Below the pieces are notes generated by a model. It had not been told where the DNA came from. It worked only from the letters and a program-made list of their open reading frames with translations, and did not search any database. Shown piece by piece: positions 12,726-60,958 of a stretch of DNA of 64,000 nt. Each line of letters opens with the position of its first letter. Position 1 is the first letter of the stretch. The position numbers were made by a program, and so were the translations under genes. Source of the DNA: Candidatus Omnitrophota bacterium (lineage in GTDB: Bacteria; Omnitrophota; Gorgyraeia; B26-G9). Location of the stretch: assembly GCA_043805415.1 (NCBI GenBank), contig JAZDHZ010000036.1:4194-68193 (forward strand), given 5' to 3'.

Positions 12726-12754
12726 ATCATCTCCTGATTAGATCCAGTTATTTA

Positions 12755-33570: not shown

Positions 33571-33695
33571 ATTTTTGTTTTTCTGCTTTTCCTAATCGCT
33601 AAACGTTTATCCTGAGCAAAGTCGAAGGGCTATTCGCTAATCGCCGCTTTTTTTGTTTTTCCTAACCGCTAAACGCTAATCGCTATCCGCTGCTT
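33571..33695. repeat. Composite intergenic repeat element, copy C. It has two core copies (...TTTTTCTGCTTTTCCTAATCGCTAAACG... and ...TTTTTGTTTTTCCTAACCGCTAAACGCTAATCGCTATCCGCTG) and abuts the giant gene stop.
   Basis: Read directly from the sequence. Matches copies A and B. Confidence 0.8.
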
Positions 33696-39868: not shown

Positions 39869-42800
39869 CTCCGCTGACTGCGATATTGATAATCTCTGAA
39901 ACCGTATCAGTCAGCAATAAAGTAACCTGCCCATTATCTGCGCCCGCAAATGTATAAGTCGCGGTATCCACACTTGCCCCGCCATCATTAAACACTCCAT
40001 TTCCCGTGCTAAGCGCCCAGTTTATGGCATTAGCGGTGCCGTCAGTATCAACAGTTATCAAACCAGTATAATCAGTTTTAATATTATTATAAGCATCATA
40101 AGCTTTAATAATAATCGACTCCGGTTGATTCTGTAAAGCAAACCCATCATGGACAATAGAAAAATGGTCGATAATTCCTGGTCCTACATTAAGCATTCCT
40201 TCGGTATCATCATCTGTTTTGCCTGACCCGGATACGGAAATATTTAATTGCTCAAGAGTTGTATCTTGCAAAGATAATACAACCACTCCATCATCCGCTA
40301 AACTATAAACATAAGTAGCTGTATCTACTGATAAACCGCCATCAACAAAAGTACCATTGCCGCTGATTTTTGCCCAGGTTATGGTTGAAACTGTTCCATT
40401 GGTATCCAAAGTAATTTGTTCAGTATAATTTTTTTTCGTATTTCCATACTGATCCTTGGCAGTTATTGTAATTGTATCCAGTATTCCTGCTTGAGCAGCA
40501 CCGTCATGGGCTAGCAAAAAGTGATCCAGCACTGCGGCAGAAACAACAAGATTCCCTTCAGTATTATCATCCGACTTACTATCACCGGTTACCGCGATAT
40601 TCAGACTCTCCGCTGTAGTTGAGGTCAAGGCAAACGTGGCTGTTGAATTATCTGAAGCATTAAACGTATAAGTAGCTGTATCTACTCCCTGTCCACCATC
40701 AGTAAAAATTCCAAAACCGGTTAACAATTGCCAGCTTATTCCAGCGGCAGTGCCATTTGTATCTAAATTAATTTGTCCTGTATAATTAGACACTGTATTA
40801 TTAAAAGCATCCTTTGCTGTTACAGTTACATTTTCGGCAATACCGGCAATAGCCGCGGCATCATGGGTGATCAGAAAATGATCAATCCCTCCGGAAGCAA
40901 TAACTAAATTACCCTCAGTATTATCATCGGTTTTAGCATCGCCGCTGGCAGATATATTGATTGACTCTGCTTTATTGTCAACCAGACTAAATACCGCGGT
41001 TCCATTATCCGAAGCTGAAAAAGCATAAGTAGCAGTATCCACAGATGCTCCGCCCTCTGTAAATATTCCATTGCCTGTTACCTTTGCCCAGGTTATTGCC
41101 GTAGCTGTTCCGGTTGTATCCAAGGTAATTGTTCCGCTATAAGAAGTTTTAATATTTCCATAAATATCCCGGGCTGTCAGAGTAATCTGTTCCGGGATAC
41201 CGGTTATTGCTGATTGGTCATGCTGGATTACAAAATGATCTAGGGCCAAAGATACCGGGATGATCCCCGCTGAATTCAGCACTGTATCTTCTATCTGAAC
41301 GCCATAAACAAAACTTATCCCATTAACCGGAATCTGGATATCCAGCGTATCAGCATCATTAACAGTTTGCGCCAGAGCGCAAACTACAAAAATATCTTCA
41401 GAACCGCTAGCCGGAACACTAATATTTAAACCTGTAAATGTTTTAGTGCCAGAGTTAAACACTCCGGAACCAACCTGATTATCAACACCCGTTGTATAAT
41501 CATTAGAATTATTGCTGTCATAATATAATTTTAATGAAGAGATTTCCGTATCTGATAGCGTTCCGGTATTATTAATCACCAGGGAATTTATTACTCTTGC
41601 CTGGCTGGCAGTATTAGTTACCGTAACATCAAGACTTAAAACATTACTGGCCCCGGCAGCTATCGGAGTTGTGCTAACCGCATTAGCAATCGCGTCCGGA
41701 GGAAGTTCATAATAAATCCGCGCTGGTATCCAATCCAAATATAAATAAATAGTTGTGCTGGGAGTGCTGGCATTAATTCTCACCCGGAAATTAGCATTTG
41801 TAAAATTATCAACTGTCCAGGTTCTGCCCCAAACATCAGTTGGCCCGCCCAGAACATATGTTACTTCTGATGTAATCATATCCGGCGTAATTTTTCCTGT
41901 TGTAGTAAAGCTGGTTCCGCCATCCCAGGAAAGTTCAACCAAACCTTGGGTCAAGCCAGTAGTACTGGACGCATAGGCATCAAGCTGAACCGCAATACCC
42001 AAAATCGTTGACCCAGCCGGAATATTAACCCCATAATTATAGTACTGCTGTGATTGTCCATTGTATGAAGTAGCACGCGAAGCATCATTCGCGTAAGCAT
42101 TTGCAGGGCTGGTAAAATTACCGCTATTAGCTGTTGGCGACAAATACCCGGTATTCAATCCGCCTACTGGATTTATAACTAAATTACTTTCAGTATTATC
42201 ATCACTCTTGCCATCACCGCTAACTAAGATATTTATTGTTTCAGCCGTGCTATCATTTAAGGAAAGCACAACCATTCCATCATCAGCATCACTAAATGTG
42301 TACAAAGCTGTATCAAGTGATGCCCCTCCATCCTGGAACACTCCCACACCAGCGGTTAATGTCCAATCAATCGCTGTCGGCGTTCCATTGGTATCAAGAG
42401 TTATCTGTCCGGTATAATTATCCTTAATATTTTCCCAAACATCTTTAGCATAAATCGTAATTGATTCTCCCAGATTAACAACCGCTGAACCGTCATGGAA
42501 AATTGTAAAATGGTCAATTAGTGACGGTCCGATAATTATATCTCCTTCGGCATTAGTATCATTTTTTCCATCCCCGAAAACCGCGAGATTAATTACTTCT
42601 TTTTTCGTATCAGTAATTGCTAAAACCACAATCCCATCATCAGAGTCAGCATAGGTATATGTCGCTGTATCAACCAAAGCGCCTCCGTCGGCTAATGTAC
42701 CATTGCCAGTTATTTTTGACCAGGTAATTGTTGTCGCTGTTCCATTTGTATCCAAGGTTATTGTCCCGGTATAATTATCTTTGATATTTGAATACAAATC

Positions 42801-45800
42801 ATATGCTCTTACTGTGACATTTTCCGCTACCCCGGCTTCGGCATTTCCATCATGAATAATTACAAAATGATCAATACTGGTCGGGCCGACAATTAAATTA
42901 CCTTCTGAATCATTGTCAGTTTTCCCTCCGCCAAAAACATCAATATCAATATTTTCCTTTTTTGTATCACTAACGCTTAAAACCACAATCCCATCATCAG
43001 AGTCAGCATAAGTATATGTCGCTGTGTCAACCAAAGCTCCGTTATCAGTAAACACCCCATTGCCGGTAATTTTAAGCCAGGTAATCGTTGTCGCTGTTCC
43101 ATTTGTATCCAAGGTTATTGTCCCGGTATAATTATCTTTGATATTTAAATATGAATCATAGGCTTTTATCGTAACAGTCTCCGCTACTCCGGCCTCGGCA
43201 TTACCATCATGATTAACTACAAAATGGTCGATACTGGTCGGCCCAACAATTAAATTACCTTCTGAATCATTGTCAGTTTTCCCGTCCCCGGTTACGGAAA
43301 TATTTAGACTTTCCGCGGTTGTGTCAGTTATCTTTAGTATACATTGACCATTATCTGCCGCTAAGAATGTATACGTAGCTGTATCAACTGATGCTCCGCC
43401 GTCAACAAAAGTTCCCAAGCCAGTAGCTTTAGCCCAGGTTATTGTTCCGGCTGTGCCATTAGTATCCATACTGATCTGCCCGGTATAATTTGTCTTAATA
43501 TTGCCATAGGAGTCATAAGCAACTATTGTTATATTATCCGCAATACCGGCAACCGCGCTTCCATCGTGATTAATGGAAAAATAATCAATCGCTCCTGGCC
43601 CGACGGTTAAGGTTCCTTCTTTATCATCATCAGATTTTCCCGCTCCGCTTACTGATATATTTAAGCTTTCGACTATTGTATCAGTTATACTCAGCACGCA
43701 GGTTCCATTATCACTAGCTACATATGAATATGTTGCTGTATCAGCCAAAGCTCCGCCATCACTAAAACTGCCGTTTCCGGTAATTTTCGCCCAGCTAATA
43801 GTTGTCGCAGTGCCGGTTGTATCCAAATCAATCTGTCCGGTATATGCGGTTAATGTATTATTATTCGCGTCTTTTGCCGCGATTGTTACTGTATCAGCGA
43901 TTCCCGCGACAGCATTACCATCATGCGTAATTGTAAAATGATGCAGGCCCGCGGGATTGAACACAAGATTTCCTTCTGTATTATTGTCAGACTTGCCTTC
44001 TCCGGAAACTGAGATATTTACTGATTCTTCGGAAGAATCAGTAATTGTTAAAACCACTACCCCTAAATCTGAATCATCATACATATAAGAACAGGTATCT
44101 GCATCCGCGCCAGAATCATTAAAAGTTCCATTCCCGGATTGTAATGCCCAGGCAATAGTCCCAGAGGTTCCGGTTGTATCAATGGTTATCTGTCCGCCAT
44201 AACTTGTTAAAGTATCCCCATTAGCATTTTTCGCGTAAATTGAAATACTTTCCCCAATACCGGCAATCGCGTTACCGTCATGGACAATCAGAAAATGGTC
44301 AATCCCGGAAGAAACAAATACTAAATCACCCTCGTTATTACTATCATTCTTCCCGTCACCGGACACAGAGATATTTACAGATTCAGCAGTATAATCAATT
44401 ATACTTAAAATCACGATTCCGGCATCAGCAGGCACAAAAGTATAAGTTGCTGTATCTGCTGAAGAACCCGCATCATTAAAAACTCCTTCTCCGCTGATAA
44501 GTGTCCAGCTGATTGTAGTCACAGTTCCTGTGGTATCAAGAGTAGTCACTCCAGTATAATCATCTTTGATGTTTTCATAAGCGTCATAGGCAGTTATCAT
44601 AACTTGTTCTGATACATCTGTTGTGGCAATCCCATCATGATTAATCACAAAATGATCAATATCTCCAGAAGTAATAACTAAATTTCCTTCTGTATTATCA
44701 TCAGTCACACTACCGGCACTAACCGATATATTAATTGTCTCTGTTTTTGTATCAGTAAGGTTAAACACTGCTGTTCCATTATCCAAAGCATTAAAAGTAT
44801 AAGTTGCCGTGTCTAAGGATGCTCCGTTGTCAGTAAAAATACCATTTCCAGTATTCAGCGCCCAGGTTATTTTGGTCGCTGTCCCGGTTGTATCTAAATT
44901 TATTGTACCAGTATAATTATTTTTTATATTGCCAAACCCATCCAAAGCTGTTATTGAAATAGCTTCGGCATTTCCAGCAATAGCCTGCCCCTCATGACTA
45001 ATCACAAAATGATTAAGTTCTCCAGGAGCAATTATCAGATCCCCTTCACTATCATCATCGTATTTTCCATCTCCGACAGCGATAATATTTAATGTCTCTG
45101 CCTTATTGTCAACAATCTCAAACCTGGCTAAGCCAGTATCACTGGGGTCAAAAGTATAGATTGCTGTACCCGCGCCAGCTCCATTGTTAAAAAACACACC
45201 TGATCCTGAGTCTAGAGTCCAGTTAATATCATCCACAGAACCGTTTGTTCCCAATGTTATCTGTCCGGAGTAATTATTAACTGTATTGCCAAAACTATCT
45301 TTTACCGTAACTGAAATTATTTCTCCCGCACCAGCTATTCCTGAGCCATCATGACTAACTATAAAATGATTCACAAGCCCGGCGGAAACCGTAAGATCAG
45401 TCTCAGTATTATCATCACTTTTACCATCACCGCTTGCTGAAATATTTATTATCTCAGCGATTTCATCACTAATGTTTAATACTACCACACCCGCATCAGA
45501 CTGAGTAAATGTATATATTGCTGTATCTAAACTTACGCCGCCATCATTAAAAACCCCGCTCCCAGCATATTTTGACCAGGTAATTGATTCAGGAGTTCCA
45601 TTAGTATCAACAGTTATTGTTCCAGTATAATCGGTTTTTGTATTGCCATAAGCGTCTTTAGCAATAATCGTAATGTTTTCATCTAAGCCGGCAATTGCCG
45701 CCCCATCATGGCTAATCAAAAAATGATCTAATCCAATATATGTCTGGCGTGTACCGCTGGAGTTTAATACAGCGCTGCCGAGTTTTTTGCCATTAGAAAA

Positions 45801-48800
45801 ACCAATCCCTGAGATCGGAATTGCCACATCAAGCAGTTTTCCTGACGCGCAGGCTGAAGACAAATCAATAACCGCGAATAAATATTGGGTTGCTCCAGCA
45901 GGAATATCAATATTAAAACCTGAAAAAATTTTACTTCCTGAGGAAAAACCGCTATTGCCTACCTGGGTATCTACTTCCGGGGTGTAATCCAAAGAATTAT
46001 TTGAATCATAATACAATTTTACTGCTGAAATCTCGCTATCACTGACTGTTCCTACATTATTTAAGGTAACACTGTTTATCGTTAGCGTGCTCCCTTCATT
46101 ATTCGTAACTGAAACATCAAGAATTAAATTGCCTGTTTGGCCTACTGGGATAGTATCAGTTATTACTGGATTTGCTGTTGCTGTTGCCGCTAAGCCTACG
46201 CTAATAAAAGTCGTTGGTGAATTCTGATTATTATATTCTGTGGCAATCCATTCCGGAGAACGCGCGGTAATTGCGTAGCGTACCTCATCCAACTTTCCAA
46301 GCCAGTATTCCGTGCTATAATTTGACCAGCCAATCAAAGCTGATGTTGCTGTAGGAAATGTTGCGCTATGCGTCCCGGTTCCATGCAGAGCTCCGTCAAC
46401 ATAAAAATAAACCATTGTCCCGACTCTGCGGAAATCAACCTTATGCCATTGACCATCATTATGCGTAGCTGTTCCGCTGGAAGTAATCAATCCATTATGA
46501 TAAACCATGGCCACGCTTTGATTATAAAAACCAAATTGCGGCGCGTAATTATTATGGTCATAAATCGTTGAATATGATGCCGGAGAAGAAATATAATTAA
46601 ACCACGCGGAAATAGTATAATCCCCGGGAGTGCCCACTCCCACCGGACTGGTCTTCTTAAAGTAATCATTACTGCCGTCAAAATCTATTCCTTTGCCGAT
46701 TTTAGCGTCAATCAAATCCGTATTAGTCATGGTTCCGTAAGAAGTCATCGCGTTATTATTGGAAGTTGAATCTTTTTCCTGCGGAGCGGTTGCTGAAGGA
46801 TCATTATTTAAATGCCAGACGCCTTTATATGATGTATCCCATACTCCGCTTTTATTCTGCTGATCACTGGCAGCGCTATTTCCATAATACATATAAATCT
46901 TTGTATCTGCTGATGATAAAAGACTGGGAATTTTTACCCAGGCCACAAGGATTCCGGTTGTTTTATCAAAGCTTTCTATTTCATGATCTAATTTTGTATT
47001 TCCGTCACTGGCAGTAAAAACAATATCAAAACCATCGCTGCGGGCATTATCCCGCAATGCTGTATCTGTAATACTTATCAGTACTGGAAAATTAGTCAGA
47101 TTAGCCATGACTTTTGTCCGGTCAATTGTGATCTCTTTATGAAAAGACCAATTTGCTAGTAAAAACTGAGTGATCACTAAATTGCCTTCAGTATTATCAT
47201 CAGTCATGCCGCCGCCGCTTACCGAAATATTTATTGTCTCCGCGGTTGTGTCGGTCAAATCAAGAGTTACCACTCCGAAATCCGCGGAACCATATGTATA
47301 AGTCGCGGTATCAACACTGGCTCCGCCGTCAACAAAAGCTCCTGCGCCTTGATATTTTGACCAGGTAATTGTTGTCGCGGTTCCGGTTGTGTCAACGATT
47401 ATCGACCCGGTATAATCTGTCTTAATATTATTAAAACCATCATACGCGGCTATCGTAATATGCTCCGGCTGTCCGGTAAAAGCATTATTATCATGAGAAA
47501 TAATAAACTTAGTTAATGCCCCGGGAAGCACCTGCAATAATCCTTCACTATTATCATCAGAAGCACTGCCGGACACAGCAATATTTATTGTCTCAGTAAA
47601 AGTATCAGCCATTGCCAAAACAACAACTCCATTATCCGCAGCGCTAAATGTATAGGAACAGGTATCTGCTGATGATCCGTCATCTACAAATGTTCCGCTT
47701 CCGCTAATTTTCGTCCAATTGATTGTACTAGCTGTTCCATCAGTATCAATATATATGGTTCCAGTATAATCAGTTTTGGTCTGGCCTAATGTATCTTTAG
47801 CCGTAATTGTAATATTTTCATTTGTTCCGGCAATAGCCTGACCGTCATGCGCGATCAGGAAATGATGCAGCAATGCTGTATCAATATTCAGCAGGCCCTC
47901 GCTATCATCATCAGTTTTTCCGCTGCCGCTAATATCAATATCAATATTTTCCACCACATTATCCGTTATTGCCAGGGTTACTACCCCATTATCTAAAGCG
48001 GAAAATGTATATACAGCTGTATCCACAGCTGTACCGCCGTCATTAAATGTCCCATTACCGCTTATCTTAGCCCAGCTGATTGCCGCGGGAGTTCCGCTGG
48101 TATCGATTGTTATGGTTCCAGTATAATCTGTCTTTATCTGACCAATACTGTTTAATGCCGTAATCGTAACAGTTTCCGCTACCCCGGCATTACCCGCTCC
48201 ATCATGTACTACCCGAAAAGACCAAATAATCGCAGGCCCAACCACTAAATTTCCCTCAGCATTATTATCAATTTTTCCATCGCCGGAAACTGAAATATTA
48301 ATTGATTCCGCTGTAATATCAGTTATCGCGAAAACCGCGATGCCATTATCTGCTGAATCAAAAGCATATGTCGCGGTATCGACACTTTCTCCATTATCAT
48401 TAAATATGCCATTGCCTGTTGTTTTTGCCCAGCTGATTGCTGATGCCGTGCCATCTGTATCTAAAGTAATTGTTCCGCTATAATCACTTTTTGTATTGCC
48501 ATAGATGTCTTTTGCTGTCACTGTTACTTGCTCGGAAACTCCGGATGATGCCGCATTATCATGGCTTATCAGAAAATAATCAATTGCCGCGGCACTGACC
48601 ACCATTGTCCCTTCAGCATCAGTATCAGTTTTTCCCTCAGCACTGGCATCAATATCAATTGTTTCTTTTTTTGTATCCGTAATACTCAAAACAACAGCAC
48701 CCGCGTCAGAAAGCACAAAACCATATGTCGCGGTATCAACCGAACTGTCTCCGTCAGTAAGCACGCCATTTCCGCTTATTTTCGCCCAGCTGATTGTTGT

Positions 48801-51800
48801 CGCCGTGCCATTAGTATCCACAGTCATTGTCCCGGCATAATCGGTTTTAATATTATTATAAATATCATACGCGATAATCGTAACATTATCCGCTATGCCG
48901 GCTATGGCTTGAGCATCATGGCCAACAATAAAATGATCCAAAGCTGTTGGAGCAATCACTAGATTTCCTTCAATATCATTATCATGAATCCCTGAATCAT
49001 CAACCAAAATATTCAGCGTTTCGGCTTTAGTATCCTTAATAGTAAATATAGCCACACCATTATCATTGGGATTAAAAGTGTATTGAGCTGTATCAACGCT
49101 TGCCCCGCCTTCGCTAAAAGTTCCCAGTCCAGTACTAATCGTCCAGGAAATAGTTGTCGGAGTACCATTTGTATCAAGATTAATCGTGCCCACATAATCA
49201 GTTTTTGTCTGACCATTTGTATCTTTTGCTGTGACTTTTACGTTTTCTTTAACCCCGGCAACTCCGGCATTATCATGTTCAATAACAAACCAGCCTAAAG
49301 CAGTTGTCGAAACAACCAATGTTCCTTCAGCATCATCATCACTATGCGTTCCATCAGTTACCTCAATATCCAGATTATTTGCCGCGCTGCATGTAAGCTG
49401 CAAAACAACAACCCCATTATCCGCGGCATTAAAAGTATAAGTCGCGGAATCATTATCAACCCCATTATCCACAAAACTACCGCTGCCGCTAACCAATGTC
49501 CAGGTAATCTGGTTTGTTTCATTTAAAGTACTCAGTGTTATCTGCCCGGTAAAATCATTAACCGTACAATTGGTAATATTTTTCGCTGTAATTGTTATGG
49601 TTTCCAAAGTATTAATCAATGCTGAGCCATCATGCGTAATCACAAAATGATCTATTGCTGTATCAATAGTAAAAGTATCATTAGTATCATTAAGCATAAT
49701 ATTTCCGGCAATATCCTTTGCCGCGCTTATTGCTATTGCTGCTGTCCCATCTCCTGTAGCACTATTTATCGCGCTGCTATTATAGACAGTATATGTATCA
49801 TTCGGATTATTCGTGGTTGACCAATAACCATTAAGACTCGCGTTCTGCACGCCGGTTGCTCCGCTAGGATCATAAGTTACAATCGGATTTGTGCCGGTAT
49901 CCATTGACTCGGAAAAAAGCAGAGTAAATGTTAACTCTCCTGGCGCCCGGTGACCGCTGGGATCAGGCAAAACTCCCACACTTACTGTGGGCTTTGTTGA
50001 ATCAAATATAAAAGTAAATAATGTCGCCGCCGGTTCACTATAATGTCCCAAAGCATCAAAAGTCCGTACGCGCAAATAGTAAGTAGTACCTTCATTAGCA
50101 TCAGAAATAACATTATACTGCGCTGTAGCTTGTTCCTGAACTGTTGCCGGATTACCTTCAGGATTAATTCCCCAATAAACTGAATAACCGCTGACTCCTT
50201 GTCCATTGCCGTCAGCAGCTCCGGTCCATTCAAAATAAGGAGTTGAGTCAATTCCCTGCGGAGTATTATCCGAAATAAGCGTGTTTTTTGACGCGGAATC
50301 CCAGGCATTACACGGAATAGCAGGATTTAGCGGAGCAGTGGCATCATATTTAAAAGTAAACAAAGTAACCGGAGTGCTATAATGATTCAGATTATCAAAA
50401 GTTCTTATCCTTAAATAATAAGTACCATCTCCCATAGGAGTACTAACTTCATAATTCGCATTGCCCTGTTCTTGGTTAGTTCCAGGTGCTCCATTTATAT
50501 CAGTGCCCCAATAAACAGAATAACCGCTTAGTCCTGAACCACCGCTGTCATTGGCTCCGGTCCATTCAAAATATGGAGTATCATCCGCTTCCTGCCAGGT
50601 ATTATTACTGATCGGATTTATTTTTAAATTTGTTTGCCATGCCGCACAAGGGATATCTGGATTTAAAGGAGCGCCAACATCATAGCGAAAAGTGAACAGA
50701 GTTATCGGTTCACTGTAATTTCCGATAACATCAAAAGTTCTGACTCTTAGAAAATATACACCGTCTTCAGTTCCGGAAGAAACATTATAATTGCTAGCAG
50801 TCTGGCCTTGAGTCAAGCCTGGTTCGCCGTTCGCGTCATTTCCCCAGTAAACAGAATAACCGCTGACTCCTGTGCCGCCCGTATCAGTTGCTCCTGTCCA
50901 TTCAAAATAAGGAGTATTATCTGATTCCTGCCATGTATCATTAGATATTGGGTTTATTTTACTGCTGGAATCCCATGCGCTGCAAGGTAGCGTAGGATTA
51001 ATCGGAATAGTAGTATCAATAAAAAAAGTATCATTCCCATCCGCGACCATGATATTAGCAGCTAAATCCTGCGCGGCACTCACGCTAACTACCGCGGGGC
51101 CGTCTCCGGTTTGGGCGGTTATTGCATTATCATTATATACGGTATAAGTATCATTCATTTCCGAAGTAGTTGACCAGATGCCCCCGGTACACGGCTGAGC
51201 CAGGGTGTCTCCTTGCGGATCATAAGTTACCGACGGAGTAACTCCTGTATTCATTGTCTCGCTGAATACCAGCTTTATTTCCAGAGAACCTGATGAAATC
51301 TCCCCTACCGGGTTGGGCGTAACACTTATATTTACCGTGGGTTTAATATAATCTGCCGGCCTTCTGATCGCGAAAAGTTCCACATCCTTGGAATATACCG
51401 TTCCTCCACTGGCACGGTGCCATGCCTTTACTTCATGCTGGTTGGCATCAAAGTTAACAATAGCCATATAATTGGCATTCATATAATCCGTCAAATCTTT
51501 ATAGTCTCTGTATTCAGTTGCCTGTATAACATCTGTTGCCGGATCAGCCGCGTCATGCGAAAATTCGTGGTATTGTAGGTAAGAAAGACTGCTTGTCCGT
51601 CCAAATGCCTGGCCGATAATCAGATACTCTCCAGGAGTATCTGCCGGGATTGTTGCCGTAGCCAAAAGCTGGTTTGATGTTGAGGCTGTAGAAGCTTGTG
51701 AGCTTGCGTACTGTTGATCCAAAAAGAAATCATATATTCCGGACAACCGCATAGCAAATATTCTCTGTTTACGGATAGTGCCACTAGTCGCGTCATCCAT

Positions 51801-52640
51801 CCTCGACTCAAGGCCTATGCTATGCGAGCCCGCGCTAAGATTTACCACTGAAGTTATAAATACCGGCTGCCAGTCAGTAGTATCCTGCGCTTCCAGCATA
51901 TAGTGCCGATTTGCCGCATCCGCGTAAGGCTTATACGTACTGTTATCAATATTTATCCTTATTTGCGAAGAGTCTGAGACATTATTAACATCCAGTTCAC
52001 AATACCCCATAATCAGATACTGTCCGGCAGAAGCGGGACTGATACTTAAAGAAGCTCCCAGATTTTCCCAGACCATGCTGGAAGTCATCGCATAACTTGC
52101 CGCGCCGGCATCAGTATCATAAGCATATTGATAACCGGTTTGCGAATTAATCGGGATCGCGATAAGCCGGGAACGCTTTACGCGAGTCGTGGTACCATCA
52201 TCATTGCGGTGGTCAAAATCAACGTACTGCGAACCACTTAAATTTTGCGCCACATAAAATCCGGAAACAGTTGTATAATTAGTTATGTTTACTGTTTCAA
52301 TTTTAACCGCGTCATTAGCTGAATATCCCATCAACTGAATACTGTTATTCAATTGAACCTGCAATTCCACACTATCAGCAGCAGTAGCTCCTTGCCACTC
52401 CAATTCCCACATGATCAGCCAATCAGTATTCGGCTCGGCAGTCCATCCCAAAGTATTATGTTCCGTCCAGGTTGTTGTGCTTGTACTGGTTTGTTCATTG
52501 AGGTTTTCACTGCTATACCATACATCATAAGCTCTAGCAGAGGGAGAAAATGCGCCTATCAGCAAAAAACAAAACAAAATTAAAAAGAGAATTCTGTGGG
52601 ATTTAGCAATCTTAAGTTTTTTAAAAAAATAATTTCTCAT
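39801..52640 (-). CDS. N-terminal ~4280 aa of the giant secreted adhesin. It has a signal peptide, two ~200-aa N-terminal beta-rich domains, three FN3-like modules, ~21 Ig-like 119-aa repeats, and an embedded DUF2341+LamG (MshQ-like) module.
   Basis: The start was set at the second Met (MRNYFFKK...), preceded by GGGGAAGGG. Signal peptide RILFLILFCFLLIGAFSPSARA. The repeats are seen directly. The DUF2341-like segment is WSFHKEITIDRTKV...NFPVLISI...IYMYYGN and the LamG-like segment is ...ISAWFNY...QWHKVDFRRVGTMVYFYVDG. The frame ends at a TAA 37 nt after a C5 tract. Confidence 0.85.
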   Translation of the reverse strand: MRNYFFKKLKIAKSHRILFLILFCFLLIGAFSPSARAYDVWYSSENLNEQTSTSTTTWTEHNTLGWTAEPNTDWLIMWELEWQGATAADSVELQVQLNNSIQLMGYSANDAVKIETVNITNYTTVSGFYVAQNLSGSQYVDFDHRNDDGTTTRVKRSRLIAIPINSQTGYQYAYDTDAGAASYAMTSSMVWENLGASLSISPASAGQYLIMGYCELDVNNVSDSSQIRINIDNSTYKPYADAANRHYMLEAQDTTDWQPVFITSVVNLSAGSHSIGLESRMDDATSGTIRKQRIFAMRLSGIYDFFLDQQYASSQASTASTSNQLLATATIPADTPGEYLIIGQAFGRTSSLSYLQYHEFSHDAADPATDVIQATEYRDYKDLTDYMNANYMAIVNFDANQHEVKAWHRASGGTVYSKDVELFAIRRPADYIKPTVNISVTPNPVGEISSGSLEIKLVFSETMNTGVTPSVTYDPQGDTLAQPCTGGIWSTTSEMNDTYTVYNDNAITAQTGDGPAVVSVSAAQDLAANIMVADGNDTFFIDTTIPINPTLPCSAWDSSSKINPISNDTWQESDNTPYFEWTGATDTGGTGVSGYSVYWGNDANGEPGLTQGQTASNYNVSSGTEDGVYFLRVRTFDVIGNYSEPITLFTFRYDVGAPLNPDIPCAAWQTNLKINPISNNTWQEADDTPYFEWTGANDSGGSGLSGYSVYWGTDINGAPGTNQEQGNANYEVSTPMGDGTYYLRIRTFDNLNHYSTPVTLFTFKYDATAPLNPAIPCNAWDSASKNTLISDNTPQGIDSTPYFEWTGAADGNGQGVSGYSVYWGINPEGNPATVQEQATAQYNVISDANEGTTYYLRVRTFDALGHYSEPAATLFTFIFDSTKPTVSVGVLPDPSGHRAPGELTFTLLFSESMDTGTNPIVTYDPSGATGVQNASLNGYWSTTNNPNDTYTVYNSSAINSATGDGTAAIAISAAKDIAGNIMLNDTNDTFTIDTAIDHFVITHDGSALINTLETITITAKNITNCTVNDFTGQITLSTLNETNQITWTLVSGSGSFVDNGVDNDSATYTFNAADNGVVVLQLTCSAANNLDIEVTDGTHSDDDAEGTLVVSTTALGWFVIEHDNAGVAGVKENVKVTAKDTNGQTKTDYVGTINLDTNGTPTTISWTISTGLGTFSEGGASVDTAQYTFNPNDNGVAIFTIKDTKAETLNILVDDSGIHDNDIEGNLVIAPTALDHFIVGHDAQAIAGIADNVTIIAYDIYNNIKTDYAGTMTVDTNGTATTISWAKISGNGVLTDGDSSVDTATYGFVLSDAGAVVLSITDTKKETIDIDASAEGKTDTDAEGTMVVSAAAIDYFLISHDNAASSGVSEQVTVTAKDIYGNTKSDYSGTITLDTDGTASAISWAKTTGNGIFNDNGESVDTATYAFDSADNGIAVFAITDITAESINISVSGDGKIDNNAEGNLVVGPAIIWSFRVVHDGAGNAGVAETVTITALNSIGQIKTDYTGTITIDTSGTPAAISWAKISGNGTFNDGGTAVDTAVYTFSALDNGVVTLAITDNVVENIDIDISGSGKTDDDSEGLLNIDTALLHHFLIAHDGQAIAGTNENITITAKDTLGQTKTDYTGTIYIDTDGTASTINWTKISGSGTFVDDGSSADTCSYTFSAADNGVVVLAMADTFTETINIAVSGSASDDNSEGLLQVLPGALTKFIISHDNNAFTGQPEHITIAAYDGFNNIKTDYTGSIIVDTTGTATTITWSKYQGAGAFVDGGASVDTATYTYGSADFGVVTLDLTDTTAETINISVSGGGMTDDNTEGNLVITQFLLANWSFHKEITIDRTKVMANLTNFPVLISITDTALRDNARSDGFDIVFTASDGNTKLDHEIESFDKTTGILVAWVKIPSLLSSADTKIYMYYGNSAASDQQNKSGVWDTSYKGVWHLNNDPSATAPQEKDSTSNNNAMTSYGTMTNTDLIDAKIGKGIDFDGSNDYFKKTSPVGVGTPGDYTISAWFNYISSPASYSTIYDHNNYAPQFGFYNQSVAMVYHNGLITSSGTATHNDGQWHKVDFRRVGTMVYFYVDGALHGTGTHSATFPTATSALIGWSNYSTEYWLGKLDEVRYAITARSPEWIATEYNNQNSPTTFISVGLAATATANPVITDTIPVGQTGNLILDVSVTNNEGSTLTINSVTLNNVGTVSDSEISAVKLYYDSNNSLDYTPEVDTQVGNSGFSSGSKIFSGFNIDIPAGATQYLFAVIDLSSACASGKLLDVAIPISGIGFSNGKKLGSAVLNSSGTRQTYIGLDHFLISHDGAAIAGLDENITIIAKDAYGNTKTDYTGTITVDTNGTPESITWSKYAGSGVFNDGGVSLDTAIYTFTQSDAGVVVLNISDEIAEIINISASGDGKSDDNTETDLTVSAGLVNHFIVSHDGSGIAGAGEIISVTVKDSFGNTVNNYSGQITLGTNGSVDDINWTLDSGSGVFFNNGAGAGTAIYTFDPSDTGLARFEIVDNKAETLNIIAVGDGKYDDDSEGDLIIAPGELNHFVISHEGQAIAGNAEAISITALDGFGNIKNNYTGTINLDTTGTATKITWALNTGNGIFTDNGASLDTATYTFNALDNGTAVFNLTDTKTETINISVSAGSVTDDNTEGNLVITSGDIDHFVINHDGIATTDVSEQVMITAYDAYENIKDDYTGVTTLDTTGTVTTISWTLISGEGVFNDAGSSADTATYTFVPADAGIVILSIIDYTAESVNISVSGDGKNDSNNEGDLVFVSSGIDHFLIVHDGNAIAGIGESISIYAKNANGDTLTSYGGQITIDTTGTSGTIAWALQSGNGTFNDSGADADTCSYMYDDSDLGVVVLTITDSSEESVNISVSGEGKSDNNTEGNLVFNPAGLHHFTITHDGNAVAGIADTVTIAAKDANNNTLTAYTGQIDLDTTGTATTISWAKITGNGSFSDGGALADTATYSYVASDNGTCVLSITDTIVESLNISVSGAGKSDDDKEGTLTVGPGAIDYFSINHDGSAVAGIADNITIVAYDSYGNIKTNYTGQISMDTNGTAGTITWAKATGLGTFVDGGASVDTATYTFLAADNGQCILKITDTTAESLNISVTGDGKTDNDSEGNLIVGPTSIDHFVVNHDGNAEAGVAETVTIKAYDSYLNIKDNYTGTITLDTNGTATTITWLKITGNGVFTDNGALVDTATYTYADSDDGIVVLSVSDTKKENIDIDVFGGGKTDNDSEGNLIVGPTSIDHFVIIHDGNAEAGVAENVTVRAYDLYSNIKDNYTGTITLDTNGTATTITWSKITGNGTLADGGALVDTATYTYADSDDGIVVLAITDTKKEVINLAVFGDGKNDTNAEGDIIIGPSLIDHFTIFHDGSAVVNLGESITIYAKDVWENIKDNYTGQITLDTNGTPTAIDWTLTAGVGVFQDGGASLDTALYTFSDADDGMVVLSLNDSTAETINILVSGDGKSDDNTESNLVINPVGGLNTGYLSPTANSGNFTSPANAYANDASRATSYNGQSQQYYNYGVNIPAGSTILGIAVQLDAYASSTTGLTQGLVELSWDGGTSFTTTGKITPDMITSEVTYVLGGPTDVWGRTWTVDNFTNANFRVRINASTPSTTIYLYLDWIPARIYYELPPDAIANAVSTTPIAAGASNVLSLDVTVTNTASQARVINSLVINNTGTLSDTEISSLKLYYDSNNSNDYTTGVDNQVGSGVFNSGTKTFTGLNISVPASGSEDIFVVCALAQTVNDADTLDIQIPVNGISFVYGVQIEDTVLNSAGIIPVSLALDHFVIQHDQSAITGIPEQITLTARDIYGNIKTSYSGTITLDTTGTATAITWAKVTGNGIFTEGGASVDTATYAFSASDNGTAVFSLVDNKAESINISASGDAKTDDNTEGNLVIASGGIDHFLITHDAAAIAGIAENVTVTAKDAFNNTVSNYTGQINLDTNGTAAGISWQLLTGFGIFTDGGQGVDTATYTFNASDNSTATFALTSTTAESLNIAVTGDSKSDDNTEGNLVVSAAVLDHFLLAHDGAAQAGILDTITITAKDQYGNTKKNYTEQITLDTNGTVSTITWAKISGNGTFVDGGLSVDTATYVYSLADDGVVVLSLQDTTLEQLNISVSGSGKTDDDTEGMLNVGPGIIDHFSIVHDGFALQNQPESIIIKAYDAYNNIKTDYTGLITVDTDGTANAINWALSTGNGVFNDGGASVDTATYTFAGADNGQVTLLLTDTVSEIINIAVSGDAKTDDDYEGGFGSSCRGISSF

Positions 52641-52702
52641 TTTACCCTTCCCCACCAACATATTTAAATACTATTTATAATTGATATAAAACACTAAACT
52701 AA

Positions 52703-52722
52703 TCAAGCAATTAATGTGCCAA
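52703..52722 (-). promoter_or_regulatory. Sigma-54 (-24/-12) promoter for the giant gene: TTGGCAC-ATTAA-TTGCT on the minus strand.
   Basis: Reverse complement of 52705-52724 reads TATTGGCACATTAATTGCTT. It has the GG-N10-GC spacing and a near-consensus TGGCAC/TTGC. It lies ~65-80 nt upstream of the MRNYFF start codon (52638-52640). An NtrC-type activator is encoded 1.2 kb upstream. Confidence 0.6.
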
Positions 52723-52883
52723 TATGGATTATAAAAACATGTTTTACCAAACTCATAACATCTTAATTTTAAGCACTTTATGAATAGCGATTTTTAGTAA
52801 ATAATTTACAATTCAAATTAAATTAAATAAGTGTGTAAATATCACCTCATTGTGTATTATTTTACACGCTTAACACAGTAAAA

Positions 52884-52914
52884 CTAACATTTCAAGCAAT
52901 GCTCATTATGTTAT
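52884..52914. promoter_or_regulatory. 29-bp imperfect palindrome TAACATTTCAAGCAATGCTCATTATGTTA (left copy). It overlaps the 3' end of the HUH-HTH gene, ~180-210 nt upstream of the giant-gene sigma-54 -24 element.
   Basis: Outer TAACAT/ATGTTA and inner AGCAATGCT dyad symmetry. A 28/31 match to the copy at 53844-53874. Confidence 0.5.
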
Positions 52915-53801
52915 ATTTGGTTATTATGGCTGGTAGCAGGATTACTGATTAGCTTGCGGGAAATAAGCTGTCGGCTTTTGTGTAACATTTTGGCGATTTC
53001 TGAAATTGTACAGCCGTTAGAAAGTAGCTGCTCCCCTAGATATTTTATAGCCGCTACATCTTCCGGTTGGGTAAAGTGCTTGATTTTTTTAGTTCTTTCT
53101 ATTTCATCACATAGCTTCAAGGTATCTTCATCTACGTTATCTACCTTATTTTTTGACTTCATGTAATATGCAAATTCCAGCCTAAACTTATTTAAGGCAT
53201 TTAAATCCTGAGAGATAGTATTTAGTTGTACATTTATAGCATCGTTTATTAAATTAATATATATTTCTTTTGATTTCTCAGTATTGGCGTTTAACATATT
53301 TAAGATAAAATCGCAATCAACAAAACTTTGCCTGCTAATTCTGTCTACAAATAAATTTAAAGAACTCCACCTGTATTTACCTAATTCCTTTATTAACCTT
53401 GCTTTAAGCGGATTCAAATGAATATACAAAGATATAGCAAGCAAATATTTCTCTTTTAAACATAAACACGCCCTAAAAGGCTTACAAAAAACCGGACCTT
53501 TTCTTGAGTATTTCGCATTAAGATATTTAGCGTATTTTTCAAATAAATATTTTGCTCCCAACGAAAGATTTTCATCTTCTATTTGAACCAATAAATGCAA
53601 ATGATTAGGCATCAAGCAAAATGAGAATATCTTCCAGTTAAATTTCTGCGGAATACTTTTTAACAATGAAAGCATGTAAAGATAATCGCTATCTTCTAGG
53701 AATAGCACCTCTTTCCCCGGCGCCCGGTGAGTAATATGATAAATAGCATTAGGATAGATTATTCTGTCCCTGGACAGCGGAACCCCTTCTATCTTTCTCA
53801 T
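52911..53801 (-). CDS. IS200/RAYT-like HUH (Y1) domain protein with a C-terminal DnaA-domain-IV-like HTH. Possibly a domesticated regulator or a small IS200-like element.
   Basis: YHITHRAPGKEVLF...FCLMPNHLHLLVQIE for the HUH motif, and KYSRKGPVFCKPFRA for the Tyr motif. The C-terminus CTISEIAKMLHKSRQLISRKL is HTH-like. Confidence 0.78.
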   Translation of the reverse strand: MRKIEGVPLSRDRIIYPNAIYHITHRAPGKEVLFLEDSDYLYMLSLLKSIPQKFNWKIFSFCLMPNHLHLLVQIEDENLSLGAKYLFEKYAKYLNAKYSRKGPVFCKPFRACLCLKEKYLLAISLYIHLNPLKARLIKELGKYRWSSLNLFVDRISRQSFVDCDFILNMLNANTEKSKEIYINLINDAINVQLNTISQDLNALNKFRLEFAYYMKSKNKVDNVDEDTLKLCDEIERTKKIKHFTQPEDVAAIKYLGEQLLSNGCTISEIAKMLHKSRQLISRKLISNPATSHNNQI

Positions 53802-53824
53802 TCATCCTCCTTTCTCTCGATATA

Positions 53825-53874
53825 ATTTTAAACTAGATTTCGTAACATTTCAAGCATTGCTCGTTTTGTTACTT
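53825..53874 (-). promoter_or_regulatory. Right copy of the 29-bp palindrome (TAACATTTCAAGCATTGCTCGTTTTGTTA), overlapping a sigma-70-like promoter (-35 TTGAAA, 17-bp spacer, -10 TAAAAT) for the HUH-HTH gene.
   Basis: On the minus strand: ...GAGCAATGCTTGAAATGTTACGAAATCTAGTTTAAAAT... followed by RBS AAAGGAGGA and the ATG. Confidence 0.45.
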
Positions 53875-53882
53875 GTAGGGAA

Positions 53883-55262
53883 TTAGCGGGGTTTTAGCTT
53901 GTGGGTTTTTAATTTCTTGTGCAGGTTCCTTCTGTCCAGGCCTATCTCTTTTGCTGCCCGGCTCACATTTCCTTCATGCCGCATAAGGGCCTCTGTTAAG
54001 AATCTCTGCTCAAAAGCCTCGATCGCCCTTTGCTTTGCTTTTTTAAAATTAAGCGTCCGCGACTTATCTCTTAGCTCAGCAGTCTGAGCAGTTCTCACAA
54101 CCTGCGGCAAATCAGCCAAATCAATCTTATTTTCTGTAGCCATAACCACAGCACGATGCACAATATTTTCTAATTCCCGCACATTGCCAGGCCAGGAATA
54201 ATCCATAAGAATTTTCAGCGCCGCACTGGTCATTCCCTCGACTTTTTTTGCTTCAATCCGGTTATACTTTAAAATAAAATGCTCCACCAGCATGGGAATA
54301 TCTTCCGCTCTATCCATAAGCGGTGGAATCCATAAAGGCACGACATTTAAACGATAGAAAAGATCCTCCCGAAAAGTACCTTTTTTTACCGCGTTTTCAA
54401 TATTTTCATTACTTGCCGCGATTAGCCGCACATCAACTGTCCGATTTAAGGCCTCGCCAACCCGCTTAATCTGCCCGTCCTGAAGAACTCTTAACAGTTT
54501 TGCCTGCACTTCTTTGGAAATATGCCCGATTTCATCCAGGAAAATTGTTCCGCCATCAGCCACTTCAAACAAGCCTTTTTTATCCTGACTTGCTCCGGTA
54601 AAAGCACCCCGGATATGGCCAAATAATTCACTTTCCAGTAAACTTTCAGTTAAAGCCGCGCAATCAACCGGCACAAAACTCTTTTCTTGTCTTGGACTTA
54701 AAGCATGGATTGCCCTGGCAACCAGTTCTTTTCCTGTGCCAGTCTGGCCTTGAATTAAAACCGTGCTTTTCGTGGGAGCTACTTTCTTAATCAATTCAAA
54801 CATTTTAAGCATAAACGCATTTTCCGAAATAATATCAGAAAAAGTATATGTTTTTTTAAGCTCTTGGCGCAAAGCTAAATTTTCCGCTTCCAGCCGCTTC
54901 TTTTCCAAAGCTTTATCTATAACAATCAATATTGCCTCAATCTCAAAAGGCTTTGAAAGATAATCATATGCCCCGGATTTTATTGCCCGGATAGCGTTTT
55001 CCATTGTGCCATATGCTGTCATCATAATAACTATTACCTGGGGAAACTTGGCTTTTATTTTACTTAAAAGCTGCAAACCATCCATACCCGGCATCTTAAA
55101 ATCAATTATTGCCAAATCCGGAACCTGCTTTTCAATTAATTCCAGGGCAACATTGCCATTTTCAGCAGTTGTAACTTTATAACCATTATCAATAAGCAAT
55201 TTATTTAAAAACTGCCTCATGCCTTGCTCATCATCTACAACTAAAATATGCTCTTTTTTCAT
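53883..55262 (-). CDS. Sigma-54-dependent response regulator (NtrC/PilR family: REC + AAA+ + Fis-type HTH).
   Basis: REC domain (DDEQ...D in IIDFKMPGMDG), Walker A GQTGTGKE, GAFTGA motif, ESELFGH, and a C-terminal HTH. Confidence 0.93.
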   Translation of the reverse strand: MKKEHILVVDDEQGMRQFLNKLLIDNGYKVTTAENGNVALELIEKQVPDLAIIDFKMPGMDGLQLLSKIKAKFPQVIVIMMTAYGTMENAIRAIKSGAYDYLSKPFEIEAILIVIDKALEKKRLEAENLALRQELKKTYTFSDIISENAFMLKMFELIKKVAPTKSTVLIQGQTGTGKELVARAIHALSPRQEKSFVPVDCAALTESLLESELFGHIRGAFTGASQDKKGLFEVADGGTIFLDEIGHISKEVQAKLLRVLQDGQIKRVGEALNRTVDVRLIAASNENIENAVKKGTFREDLFYRLNVVPLWIPPLMDRAEDIPMLVEHFILKYNRIEAKKVEGMTSAALKILMDYSWPGNVRELENIVHRAVVMATENKIDLADLPQVVRTAQTAELRDKSRTLNFKKAKQRAIEAFEQRFLTEALMRHEGNVSRAAKEIGLDRRNLHKKLKTHKLKPR

Positions 55263-58239: not shown

Positions 58240-58243
58240 TTAA

Positions 58244-59285: not shown

Positions 59286-59312
59286 AGATGAGCTCGCTTT
59301 GCTTTTAATAAC

Positions 59313-60470: not shown

Positions 60471-60473
60471 TTC

Positions 60474-60956: not shown

Positions 60957-60958
60957 TA

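Follow-up and report, generated by a model that had tools for sequence, protein, structure and literature searches.

The question raised by this locus is whether two palindrome copies that enclose a gene for an HUH-Y1 protein with an HTH domain belong to that gene, or to the sigma-54 activator gene and the giant surface-protein gene on either side of it. A preliminary description of the 64-kb stretch of DNA analyzed here (the window) had offered two readings of the pair: the ends of a ~1-kb RAYT- or IS200-like element, or UAS or operator sites through which the HUH-HTH protein or the NtrC-type regulator would act. We consider it likely that positions 52885-53871 are a self-contained cassette of the RAYT/TIRYT type that is old and fixed at this place, and neither an active multicopy IS nor a sigma-54 enhancer. 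Its protein would recognize the palindromes by a mechanism that we infer from the family.

The ~1-kb cassette lies between the regulator gene and the giant gene and is not in the control region of the giant gene. The features of the region are as follows.

52885-53871, the whole cassette: 987 bp, an HUH-Y1 and HTH gene between two palindrome copies
53843..53871, 5' (upstream) palindrome: plus strand TAACATTTCAAGCATTGCTCGTTTTGTTA; gene-sense strand TAACAAAACGAGCAATGCTTGAAATGTTA
52885..52913, 3' (downstream) palindrome: plus strand TAACATTTCAAGCAATGCTCATTATGTTA; gene-sense strand TAACATAATGAGCATTGCTTGAAATGTTA; overlaps the HUH stop codon
52911..53801, minus strand: HUH-Y1 and HTH gene, 296 aa
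~53418-53747, minus strand: Y1 domain of the HUH gene
~52947-53066, minus strand: C-terminal three-helix HTH of the HUH gene
53825..53853, minus strand: sigma-70-like promoter of the HUH gene, a consensus match only
52831..52867, minus strand: conserved block GTGTAAAATAATACACAATGAGGTGATATTTACACAC, ~130 nt upstream of the sigma-54 promoter, outside the cassette
52706..52721, minus strand: sigma-54 promoter TGGCACATTAATTGCT of the giant gene, outside the cassette
53883..55262, minus strand: NtrC-type sigma-54 activator (response regulator) gene, outside the cassette
55272-57227: histidine kinase gene, directly upstream of the NtrC-type gene
39801..52661, minus strand: giant secreted protein gene, 4286 aa with a DUF2341 domain, outside the cassette

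The 5' palindrome starts 11 nt past the NtrC stop codon. The reading of the giant gene continues in an overlapping ORF (33695-39868).

The two copies in the window (52885-52913 and 53843-53871) have the same orientation, as had been described, and are identical at 26 of 29 positions (90%). The earlier figure of 28/31 is an overstatement because the bases flanking the copies differ. At up to 3 mismatches, the 29-mer matched only these two places in the 64 kb, and shuffled sequences are expected to give 0 matches. A PWM built from 7 copies scored both at 45 bits, compared to 11 for the next best site in the window and a maximum of 12.7 in shuffles. The anatomy of each copy consists of an outer stem of 5-6 bp (TAACA/TGTTA) and an inner stem of 4-5 bp (GAGCA/TGCTT) with a non-complementary A/T tract between them. 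There is a pair at the two ends of the gene, but the term palindrome applies only in part. Folding of the two copies as single-stranded DNA is weak, at -3.3 and -5.0 kcal/mol for the gene-sense strand (z of -1.0 and -2.4). The position of the 5' palindrome is matched by a homologous copy in two related loci, L004 and L100, and the 3' palindrome aligns with a third copy in L004. The 3' palindrome overlaps the HUH stop codon only because a 1-nt deletion gives this ORF 11 more codons than its ortholog has. No intrinsic terminators were found in 52500-54000.

Both promoter assignments of the preliminary description held up. The sigma-70-like promoter of the HUH gene matches the consensus at 10 of 12 positions, with a -35 element TTGAAA (53853-53848) and a -10 element TAAAAT (53830-53825) separated by a 17-nt spacer, and the -35 element falls inside the 5' palindrome (53843-53871). 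The same TTGAAA-17-TAAAAT arrangement can be read in L004 and L100, and the -35 element lies within the upstream palindrome in the window, L004, L100, and L105. The other palindrome copy is indeed upstream of the sigma-54 promoter of the giant gene. This promoter, 164 nt downstream of the 3' palindrome and 45 nt before the giant-gene ATG, is the sole exact match to TGGCAC-N5-TTGCT in the window (52706-52721, minus strand), and its GG-N10-GC element is kept in all orthologous loci.

The identification of the 52911..53801 product as an HUH-Y1 protein was confirmed. Residues 19-128 match Pfam Y1_Tnp (E = 1.7e-8; 35 bits versus a cut-off of 23), and the HUH motif (H67/H69) and a catalytic-type tyrosine (Y126, in YIHLNP) are invariant in 111 homologs. 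The tyrosine is followed by a YRWSS motif in which W145, S146, and S147 are nearly invariant across the homologs. Foldseek matched the structures 4er8, 2a6m, 2vjv, and 2f4f (E from 5e-6 to 2e-4). The top PDB fold match was 4er8_A, a structure of the REP-associated transposase of E. coli together with a REP hairpin (E = 4.8e-6; TM 0.75), and the IS608 and IS200 transposases ranked below it (TM 0.58-0.69). Among NCBIfam models, REP_Tyr_transpos gave 61.8 bits (E = 6.6e-17), below the NCBI cut-off of 80 bits, and the IS200 model NF033573 gave no match. A search of PDB sequences with the family profile found nothing significant. Exact matches to the HUH and NtrC proteins were not on record. By fold and by family profile, with the REP_Tyr_transpos score below its cut-off, the protein is closest to the REP-associated tyrosine transposases.

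The AlphaFold model (pLDDT 90.7) ends in a C-terminal three-helix bundle with pLDDT above 90. The HTH region matched Pfam HTH_23 in 86 of the 111 members, HTH_7 in 78, and HTH_28 in 55; in the protein from the window the match was a weak C-terminal one to HTH_38 (E = 5.7e-4). The earlier label "DnaA-C-like" was not borne out for this domain. Bac_DnaA_C did not appear among the top 25 Pfam families for any of the 111 members, and an hhalign comparison with E. coli DnaA domain IV gave a probability of 0.7%. The value of dN/dS among three close orthologs is 0.18-0.20. The HTH of the L004 lineage contains a frameshift, and even so the gene and its palindromes have persisted there.

We compared the 200 nt upstream with the 300 nt downstream of homologous genes from Omnitrophota, Desulfobacterota, and other host groups. 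In about 60 of 78 distinct loci, the 5' and 3' flanks share a composite palindrome of ~36-46 bp that is specific to the locus; the flanks match at 21-24 of 24 nt (z of 6-13 versus shuffles), and the sequence differs from locus to locus. For example, the HUH gene of V. archaeovorus (CP019384) has its own palindrome, TTAATGAGACTTTAAGGCCAGACCTTAAAGTCTCATTAA. The anatomy is common to the family: going inward, each copy has an outer box (..ACA), then 4 nt of A/T tract and an inner box of 5-6 nt, and beyond the centre these elements are repeated in mirror image. The copies are centred 25-75 nt ahead of the start codon on the upstream side and 4-50 nt past the stop codon on the downstream side. The outer boxes are ~99% symmetric, and the A/T tract need not pair. 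Mismatches in 90 family palindromes comprised 26 G.T and 41 A.C; because G.T is not enriched over A.C, a strand-specific hairpin signature is absent, which would be compatible with a purely duplex operator function.

The palindrome pair belongs to the HUH gene, not to its neighbors, and the two copies evolve in concert and diverge together with the protein. Half-sites differ by 4% between the upstream and downstream copies of the same locus, compared to 45-53% between loci where the proteins differ by more than 50%, and half-site distance follows protein distance (Spearman 0.32; Mantel p = 0.001). Paralogs in one MAG are 40-50% identical, each with its own palindrome. The genes have unrelated neighbors in at least 65 of 81 loci, and they are co-oriented with the upstream neighbor in 54 of 64 cases and with the downstream neighbor in 54 of 69. 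The Desulfobacterota clade includes proteins of 77-99% identity from MAGs that have been placed in different high-level taxa. Additional palindrome copies more than 400 bp from the gene numbered 21 in 13 loci, and 17 of them fall between genes, even with ORFs making up 88% of the DNA (p = 1e-12).

Further copies and target-site signatures had been proposed as signs of mobility. The search for copies gave the two in the 64 kb and little beyond. A scan of a metagenome collection with the window-type palindrome returned 14 stretches, of which about half were known loci or chance matches; the unrelated stretches were mostly within genes or differently shaped, and one, L096, is a convincing solo copy. 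The target-site signature did not appear: by eye, no target or cleavage tetranucleotide is conserved beside the palindromes of the family loci. No relatives were found on viral contigs.

Comparison of orthologous clusters separates the cassette from its surroundings. The cassette behaves as a unit in its presence and absence, and it has been in at least two slots of one gene cluster. At L101, L102, and L103, which have NtrC orthologs of 64-71% identity, the same upstream cluster is found along with the giant gene and its sigma-54 promoter, and neither an HUH gene nor a palindrome was found. At L105, the cassette lies between the histidine kinase and NtrC genes, where an insert of 987 nt takes the place of the 9 nt seen in the window; the slot between the NtrC and giant genes that is filled in the window is marked there by a solo palindrome. 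Between lineages with 81-91% protein identity, the position of the cassette is syntenic. The block at 52831-52867 behaves differently from the palindromes. It is common to the window, L001, L004, L021, and the HUH-less L101, L102, and L103, and it is dyad-symmetric in L102. It is a likelier candidate than the palindromes for the site of the NtrC-type activator. In the window and L021 the palindromes are very different, and the recognition helix of the activator is near-identical (DRRNLHKKL versus DRRNLQRKL).

These comparisons bear on the two readings of the preliminary description. That the pair marks the ends of a ~1-kb RAYT/IS200-like element is supported: it brackets homologs in dozens of unrelated neighborhoods, gene and palindromes are missing together from orthologous NtrC-giant loci, and one relative has the cassette in the other slot. 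The reading as an NtrC UAS or operator is not supported, since HUH-less orthologs keep NtrC, the sigma-54 promoter, and another block at UAS distance without the palindromes, and divergence of the palindromes goes with that of the HUH protein, the NtrC helix being near-constant.

On the RAYT/TIRYT reading that we favor, the HUH-HTH protein, a single-strand-DNA tyrosine nuclease/ligase joined to an HTH domain, would bind the palindromes, with the HTH domain probably taking the duplex form. The HUH/Tyr site would cut and rejoin one strand whenever hairpins of the palindromes are exposed, the lagging-strand template being one example; such cutting and rejoining has been seen in vitro with E. coli TnpA_REP. 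Over evolutionary time, this nuclease activity, or recombination between copies, could spread, move, or delete palindromes and cassette. Because the -35 element lies in the upstream palindrome, binding there would probably also repress the HUH gene, and autoregulation by the HUH-HTH protein at this copy is plausible.

That both loci of the window pair an HUH-Y1 protein with a giant adhesin gene had been taken to argue for a functional relationship. The product of the other HUH gene (3596-4753) is from another family, and this gene lacks a flanking pair and has just two tandem 24-bp repeats on its upstream side. The case for a functional pairing stands in part: the order response regulator (RR)-HUH-DUF2341 recurs in a few lineages, but most family members are elsewhere. 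The order is found with two unrelated types of regulator, NtrC-type and NarL-type. Among 763 genes in 81 loci there are 7 DUF2341 genes, all directly downstream of the HUH gene, and the slot between the NtrC and giant genes holds HUH proteins from two distant clades. No more than about 3-5 independent lineages account for the association. A purely selfish or neutral cassette would not explain why the placement between a regulator and a DUF2341 giant gene is repeated, a small oddity that can be tested. It is possible, but improbable, that the cassette is a recruited part of the Omnitrophota loci in which a two-component system leads to a giant DUF2341 surface protein, where it might insulate or repress while bound at the palindromes, or might work as a switch by single-strand recombination and so gate or diversify giant-gene expression.

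Three other explanations were weighed against the RAYT/TIRYT reading. A currently active, autonomous IS200/IS605-like IS, with the palindromes as left-end and right-end hairpins for single-strand "peel and paste" transposition, would account for the direct orientation of the copies, as at the ends of IS608, for the presence/absence variation and two slots within one conserved cluster, and for the closely similar Desulfobacterota proteins in distant taxa. The co-orientation with neighboring genes is also what targeting of the lagging-strand template would be expected to produce. We think such an element unlikely here. Near-identical copies in different contexts were seen at no two loci, and paralogs of one MAG have diverged to 40-50% identity; MAG assemblies can hide or collapse identical repeats, which bears on the low copy counts. 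The position is conserved at 81-91% protein identity with dN/dS of about 0.2. The protein is twice the size of TnpA_IS200, matches the REP-associated model and not the IS200 model, and has a RAYT as its top fold match. The lack of viral relatives and of an evident target tetranucleotide (by eye) points the same way.

Both remaining explanations treat the palindromes as regulatory sites. If the protein were mainly a transcription factor, the palindromes would be duplex operators for self-repression and for gating of the giant gene within the two-component module. The -35 element inside the upstream palindrome at four loci is consistent with this, as are the ~99% symmetry of the outer boxes and the lack of a G.T-over-A.C bias, both predicted by duplex recognition, and the recurrent gene order with NtrC-type and NarL-type regulators, in which 7 of 7 DUF2341 genes directly follow the HUH gene and two distant HUH clades share one slot. 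A pure repressor, however, would not need the HUH motif and catalytic tyrosine that all 111 homologs retain; the neighbors are unrelated in at least 65 of 81 loci; orthologous clusters function without the cassette; the DUF2341 link comes from about 3-5 lineages; and the L004 lineage retains the gene and palindromes with a frameshifted HTH. We regard a role mainly in transcription as quite unlikely. Enhancer (UAS) sites for the adjacent activator are the least probable of all, and we give this explanation very little weight. The palindromes do resemble the sites of bEBPs of the NtrC/NifA type: they are dyad-symmetric, an exact sigma-54 promoter follows one copy at a distance of 164 nt, and the activator gene is immediately upstream of the pair. 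Unlike such sites, they do not track the activator across orthologous loci. They are absent from HUH-less NtrC/sigma-54/giant loci, they flank HUH homologs in dozens of loci without a sigma-54 activator, they differ greatly between the window and L021 where the recognition helix is nearly the same, and the usual UAS distance is taken by a separate block that all orthologous loci share. The candidate identity as NtrC UAS was rejected on the empty sites and the family-wide context. This removes a tempting enhancer reading and indicates a more likely sigma-54 enhancer block.

Among known systems, the cassette resembles the REPtron, in which a RAYT (TnpA_REP) is associated with REPs (E. coli YafM, PDB 4ER8; Nunvar 2010; Ton-Hoang 2012; Corneloup 2021, PMC8266576). 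The HUH and tyrosine set is shared, the top structure and curated profile are of this type, cognate palindromes flank the gene, extra copies are extragenic, and the position is stable with mostly vertical inheritance. In contrast, E. coli-type RAYTs have ~165 aa and no HTH, compared to 296 aa with an HTH here. REPs bear a GTAG tag at the 5' end and number tens to hundreds, whereas the palindrome of the window type lacks a tag and is rare. GTAG was not found beside either copy in the window, and no common tag was visible by eye at the palindromes of other loci. Several observations do not fit a RAYT or TIRYT well: the weak hairpins in the window, the lack of a strand-specific mismatch bias, the missing GTAG tag, the missing GGGGWSAS motif, the REP_Tyr_transpos score below its cut-off, and the very low copy number of the palindrome, which differs from that of classical REPs.

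The IS200/IS605 family (IS608, ISDra2, IS200) has in common with the cassette the Y1 HUH fold, imperfect palindromes that lie subterminally at each end and point the same way, no evident target duplication, and an orientation bias consistent with lagging-strand targeting. It differs in its transposases, which have ~130-155 aa and no HTH, and in its multiple, near-identical copies. Here, the IS200 profile gave no match, and no target or cleavage tetranucleotide stood out as conserved.

The protein matches the TIRYT or TnpA_REP-like subclass 2.1 type, as judged from described features. Subclass 2.1 has C-terminal domains like HTH_23, HTH_28, or DnaA_C and has been equated with TIRYTs (PMC6006769). 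TIRYTs are flanked by terminal inverted repeats (TIRs), some of which are self-complementary, make up small repeat families, and appear as dimers or clusters; most TIRs, though not all, carry a GGGGWSAS motif (PMC3733652). As in the TIRYT or "TIRtron" (Di Nocera et al. 2013, PMC3733652; PMC6006769), the protein here is a RAYT-like Y1 HUH protein of ~300 aa whose C-terminal HTH is of the HTH_23/HTH_28 type and which has a serine motif past the catalytic tyrosine (YRWSS here; the published motif was compared by description). A cognate repeat pair that is not a GTAG REP encloses the gene, and several divergent paralogs can coexist in a genome, each with its own repeat. The repeats themselves are different: they are composite palindromes of ~29-46 bp with an A/T-rich TAACA...AGCAWTGCT...TGTTA form, and GGGGWSAS was not found at them in the window or at the other loci. 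Because each copy is itself dyad-symmetric, the flanking pair reads both as direct and as inverted.

Quentin et al. 2018 found no REP-like sequence beside subclass 2.1 genes (PMC6006769). In contrast to that statement, about three quarters of the genes in the clade analyzed here are bracketed by a long cognate palindrome, one on each side, that co-evolves with the protein. The TIRYT surveys (PMC3733652, PMC6006769) did not include Omnitrophota and relatives, the hosts here, and our results extend this little-studied HTH-bearing class to them. The many protein and palindrome pairs make up a natural series on how HUH and HTH domains share one site.

The preliminary description had placed two copies of a 29-bp palindrome around the HUH-HTH gene of the window, and this pair is real: both copies were found bracketing the gene, with 26/29 positions identical. 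There was no third copy with up to three mismatches in the 64-kb window, where none is expected by chance, and no other site in the 64 kb scored close to the pair with a position-weight matrix made from seven copies. The features considered here are the following.

52706-52721, exact match to the sigma-54 consensus (TGGCACATTAATTGCT), 45 nt before the giant gene and 164 nt past the downstream palindrome
52831-52867, minus strand, conserved block (GTGTAAAATAATACACAATGAGGTGATATTTACACAC), pattern CA[A/G]TGAGG...TAC[A/G]CA, ~130 nt upstream of the sigma-54 promoter
52885-52913, downstream copy of the 29-bp repeat, same orientation as the upstream copy
52911-53801, minus strand, ORF of the HUH-HTH protein (296 aa), between the two repeats
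53843-53871, upstream copy of the 29-bp repeat
3596-4753, minus strand, other HUH protein of the window, RAYT-like, 385 aa (REP_Tyr_transpos, 54 bits)

Read along the minus strand, the genes for a histidine kinase (HK) and the NtrC-type activator come first, then the HUH-HTH gene with a palindrome on each side, and finally the sigma-54 promoter and the gene for a 4286-aa DUF2341 protein. Each 29-bp copy is only an imperfect palindrome, with outer arms TAACA/TGTTA, inner arms GAGCA/TGCTT and an unpaired A/T tract in between, and the copies fold weakly as single-stranded DNA (-3.3 and -5.0 kcal/mol, sense strand). The overlap of the downstream palindrome with the stop codon is incidental, because a 1-nt deletion lengthens the ORF by 11 codons relative to an ortholog with 91% protein identity. 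The giant gene is present in the window as two ORFs (33695-39868 and 39801-52661, minus strand; 2057 and 4286 aa, overlapping by 68 nt); the orthologs each have one ORF of about 6,057-6,807 aa. Recoding or a frameshift could explain the split, as could a sequencing error.

In a set of 80 genomic loci, the 200 nt preceding each gene were compared with the 300 nt that follow it. The two flanks have in common a stretch that matches at 21-24 of 24 nt in approximately 60 of the 78 distinct loci (z 6-13 relative to shuffles), and the shared sequence is different in each locus. The common architecture is a composite palindrome of ~36-46 bp in which an outer box, in many cases with ACA at its end, precedes a 4-nt A/T tract and a 5-6-nt inner box; a single central base and the mirror image follow. 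Palindrome centres are 25-75 nt before the start codon for the upstream copy and 4-50 nt after the stop codon for the downstream copy. Complementarity is ~99% at positions 10-19 from the centre, with mismatches mostly within the A/T tract. Within a locus, the best half-sites of one copy and the other show a difference of 4%, compared to 45-53% between loci once their proteins are >50% different, and half-site and protein distances are correlated (Spearman 0.32, Mantel p 0.001). These values indicate that the two copies undergo concerted evolution and co-evolve with the bracketed protein. Gene neighbourhoods of the family loci are highly varied. From these sequence comparisons, we conclude that the pair belongs to the HUH-HTH gene, as its cognate DNA, and not to the neighbours, and that the whole is a discrete cassette. 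There were 21 extra copies of a member's own palindrome >400 bp from the gene in other family members, 17 of them intergenic, in DNA of which ORFs make up 88%. A metagenome scan gave one convincing solo palindrome of the window type, upstream of an unrelated gene.

The protein places this cassette among known elements. Full-length homologs (~290 aa) number in the hundreds, mainly in Omnitrophota, Elusimicrobiota, WOR-3 and Desulfobacterota MAGs, and among 50%-identity representatives the protein matches 78 clusters at E≤1e-30 and 8,840 at E≤1e-10. A Y1_Tnp (IS200-like) domain occupies residues 19-128, and there is a weak HTH match at the C-terminus. The HUH motif (H67, H69) and the tyrosine of YIHLNP (Y126), which is followed C-terminally by a YRWSS motif, do not vary among 111 homologs. 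For the confident AlphaFold model (pLDDT 90.7), the top match in the PDB is 4er8, in which the REP-associated tyrosine transposase of E. coli is bound to a REP hairpin (E 4.8e-6, TM 0.75), with the IS608, IS200 and ISDra2 transposases ranking lower. In NCBIfam, the protein matches REP_Tyr_transpos at 61.8 bits, under the 80-bit cut-off, and does not match the IS200 model. The C-terminal three-helix domain matches HTH_23, HTH_7 or HTH_28 in most family members. The earlier label of a DnaA-C-like HTH was not borne out: Bac_DnaA_C was never among the top Pfam families for the C-terminal domain of any of the 111 members, and there was no similarity to an approximate reference sequence of DnaA domain IV. 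Proteins of this type are already on record. TnpA_REP-like subclass 2.1 has Bac_DnaA_C/HTH_23/HTH_28-like domains at the C-terminus and was equated by Quentin et al. 2018 (PMC6006769) with TIRYTs as described by Di Nocera et al. 2013 (PMC3733652). TIRYT genes have terminal inverted repeats on both sides, some self-complementary and some in small repeat families (PMC3733652). The initial reading of the palindromes as ends of an IS200/IS605- or RAYT-type element was essentially right, and can be narrowed to a TIRYT/RAYT-type cassette.

Comparison of orthologous loci shows that, over evolutionary time, the cassette has been inserted, relocated or lost as a whole. Orthologs at 81% and 91% protein identity are in the same slot, between HK-NtrC and the giant gene, and carry the window's palindrome in two or three copies. 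The NtrC-type activator orthologs form a graded series. Three loci (L101, L102 and L103; activator identity 71%, 69% and 64%) retain radical-SAM/SPASM, PqqD, ScmC and HK genes upstream, as well as the sigma-54 promoter and a 6,000-6,800-aa giant gene, and have in the slot neither a HUH gene nor a palindrome with the cassette-type architecture. At L105 (activator 67%, HUH 51%), the cassette is between HK and NtrC, as a 987-nt insert compared to 9 nt at that site in the window; its left palindrome supplies the last kinase codons, and a solo palindrome of the same type (AAAATTGACAAATGAGCAATGCTCATTTGTTAATTTT, 6426-6462) is in the NtrC/giant slot. L021 and L106 (HUH 41-46%) have the window's arrangement with another palindrome, AAGTCWGACTT instead of GAGCAWTGCTC. 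The data do not indicate recent activity: paralogs that share a MAG reach only 40-50% identity, synteny is kept among close orthologs (dN/dS about 0.2), and no relatives were found on viral contigs.

Sister lineages have apparent signs of decay: the HTH of the 81% ortholog is frameshifted by a 1-nt deletion (L004, ~10765), and in the 91% ortholog foreign DNA lies between the promoter/upstream palindrome and the RBS, where the contigs break (L001 1-164, L100 1-110). In L101 (8396-8790), the NtrC/giant slot has a ~350-bp insert with inverted repeats at its ends (AGTAGCGAGTAGCAAG... / ...CTACTCGCTACT) that looks like a MITE-like element.

The palindromes had alternatively been read as enhancer sites (UAS) for the NtrC-type regulator or as operators coordinating the HUH-HTH gene with the giant gene. 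We rejected the UAS reading. Orthologous loci without the HUH gene lack the palindromes, and the palindromes of the window and L021 are very different despite a nearly constant Fis-type recognition helix in the activator. Instead, all orthologous NtrC-giant loci, with or without the cassette, share the block of 52831-52867, which lies ~110-140 nt ahead of the sigma-54 promoter, has clear dyad symmetry in L102, and is the better candidate for the activator site. In L102, a 1604-aa SecA-like gene (8395-13696) occupies the NtrC/giant slot, with ~50 bp of the block duplicated on either side. The pairing of HUH and giant genes had also been taken to argue for a functional relationship. The order response regulator, HUH, DUF2341 does recur: all 7 DUF2341 genes among 763 genes at 81 loci are directly downstream of the HUH gene, and a second syntenic group, including Candidatus Velamenicoccus archaeovorus, has HK, NarL-type regulator, HUH-HTH and DUF2341 protein (L055, L058, L065, L067, L075, L082; about 5600-12300), with a HisKA_3 kinase and more large surface proteins after the DUF2341 protein. 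In a neighbour-joining tree (no support values), the HUH proteins of the NtrC/giant slot split between two distant clades. However, only about 3-5 independent lineages account for the association and most family members are elsewhere, so we regard a functional link as possible but less likely. The second HUH locus of the window (3596-4753) adds nothing to it. Its protein is of a different family, with 33% identity to the HUH-HTH protein over the N-terminal domain only and no HTH match; two tandem 24-bp repeats (TAAAAAGTGYCAGGYATAATCAGG, 4782-4837) are just upstream, with none downstream and no flanking pair. This gene is followed by a 184-aa ORF and then a secreted protein with a Kre9_KNH-like Ig domain (at least 1022 aa; it continues beyond the window).

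For the TIRYT/RAYT-type cassette, we propose that the HUH-HTH protein binds the flanking palindromes, with the HTH domain reading their duplex form and the HUH/Tyr centre nicking and rejoining one strand once they are exposed as hairpins. TnpA_REP enzymes cut and rejoin cognate single-stranded REPs in vitro (PMC8266576). Binding at the upstream palindrome would probably autoregulate the gene, because the -35 (TTGAAA) of its sigma-70-like promoter falls within that palindrome, as also in L004, L100 and L105. Hairpin and duplex recognition could not be separated by mismatch counts (26 G.T vs 41 A.C, G.T not enriched), and the window hairpins are weak.

A RiPP-like gene set (radical SAM/SPASM, PqqD-like small ORF, ScmC, NTP_transf_5 and SurA_N-like protein; 57211-62359, minus strand) always precedes the HK-NtrC-giant unit in the orthologous loci (L004, L101-L106), which suggests one conserved functional cluster. 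In a Desulfobacterota-centred clade (L042, L063, L064, L071, L072 and relatives; palindrome TTACCCATTTC...), MAGs placed in different high-level taxa encode proteins with 77-99% identity to each other, and 8 kb of L063 contain 9 copies of the palindrome, which may point to horizontal transfer or to a higher activity.
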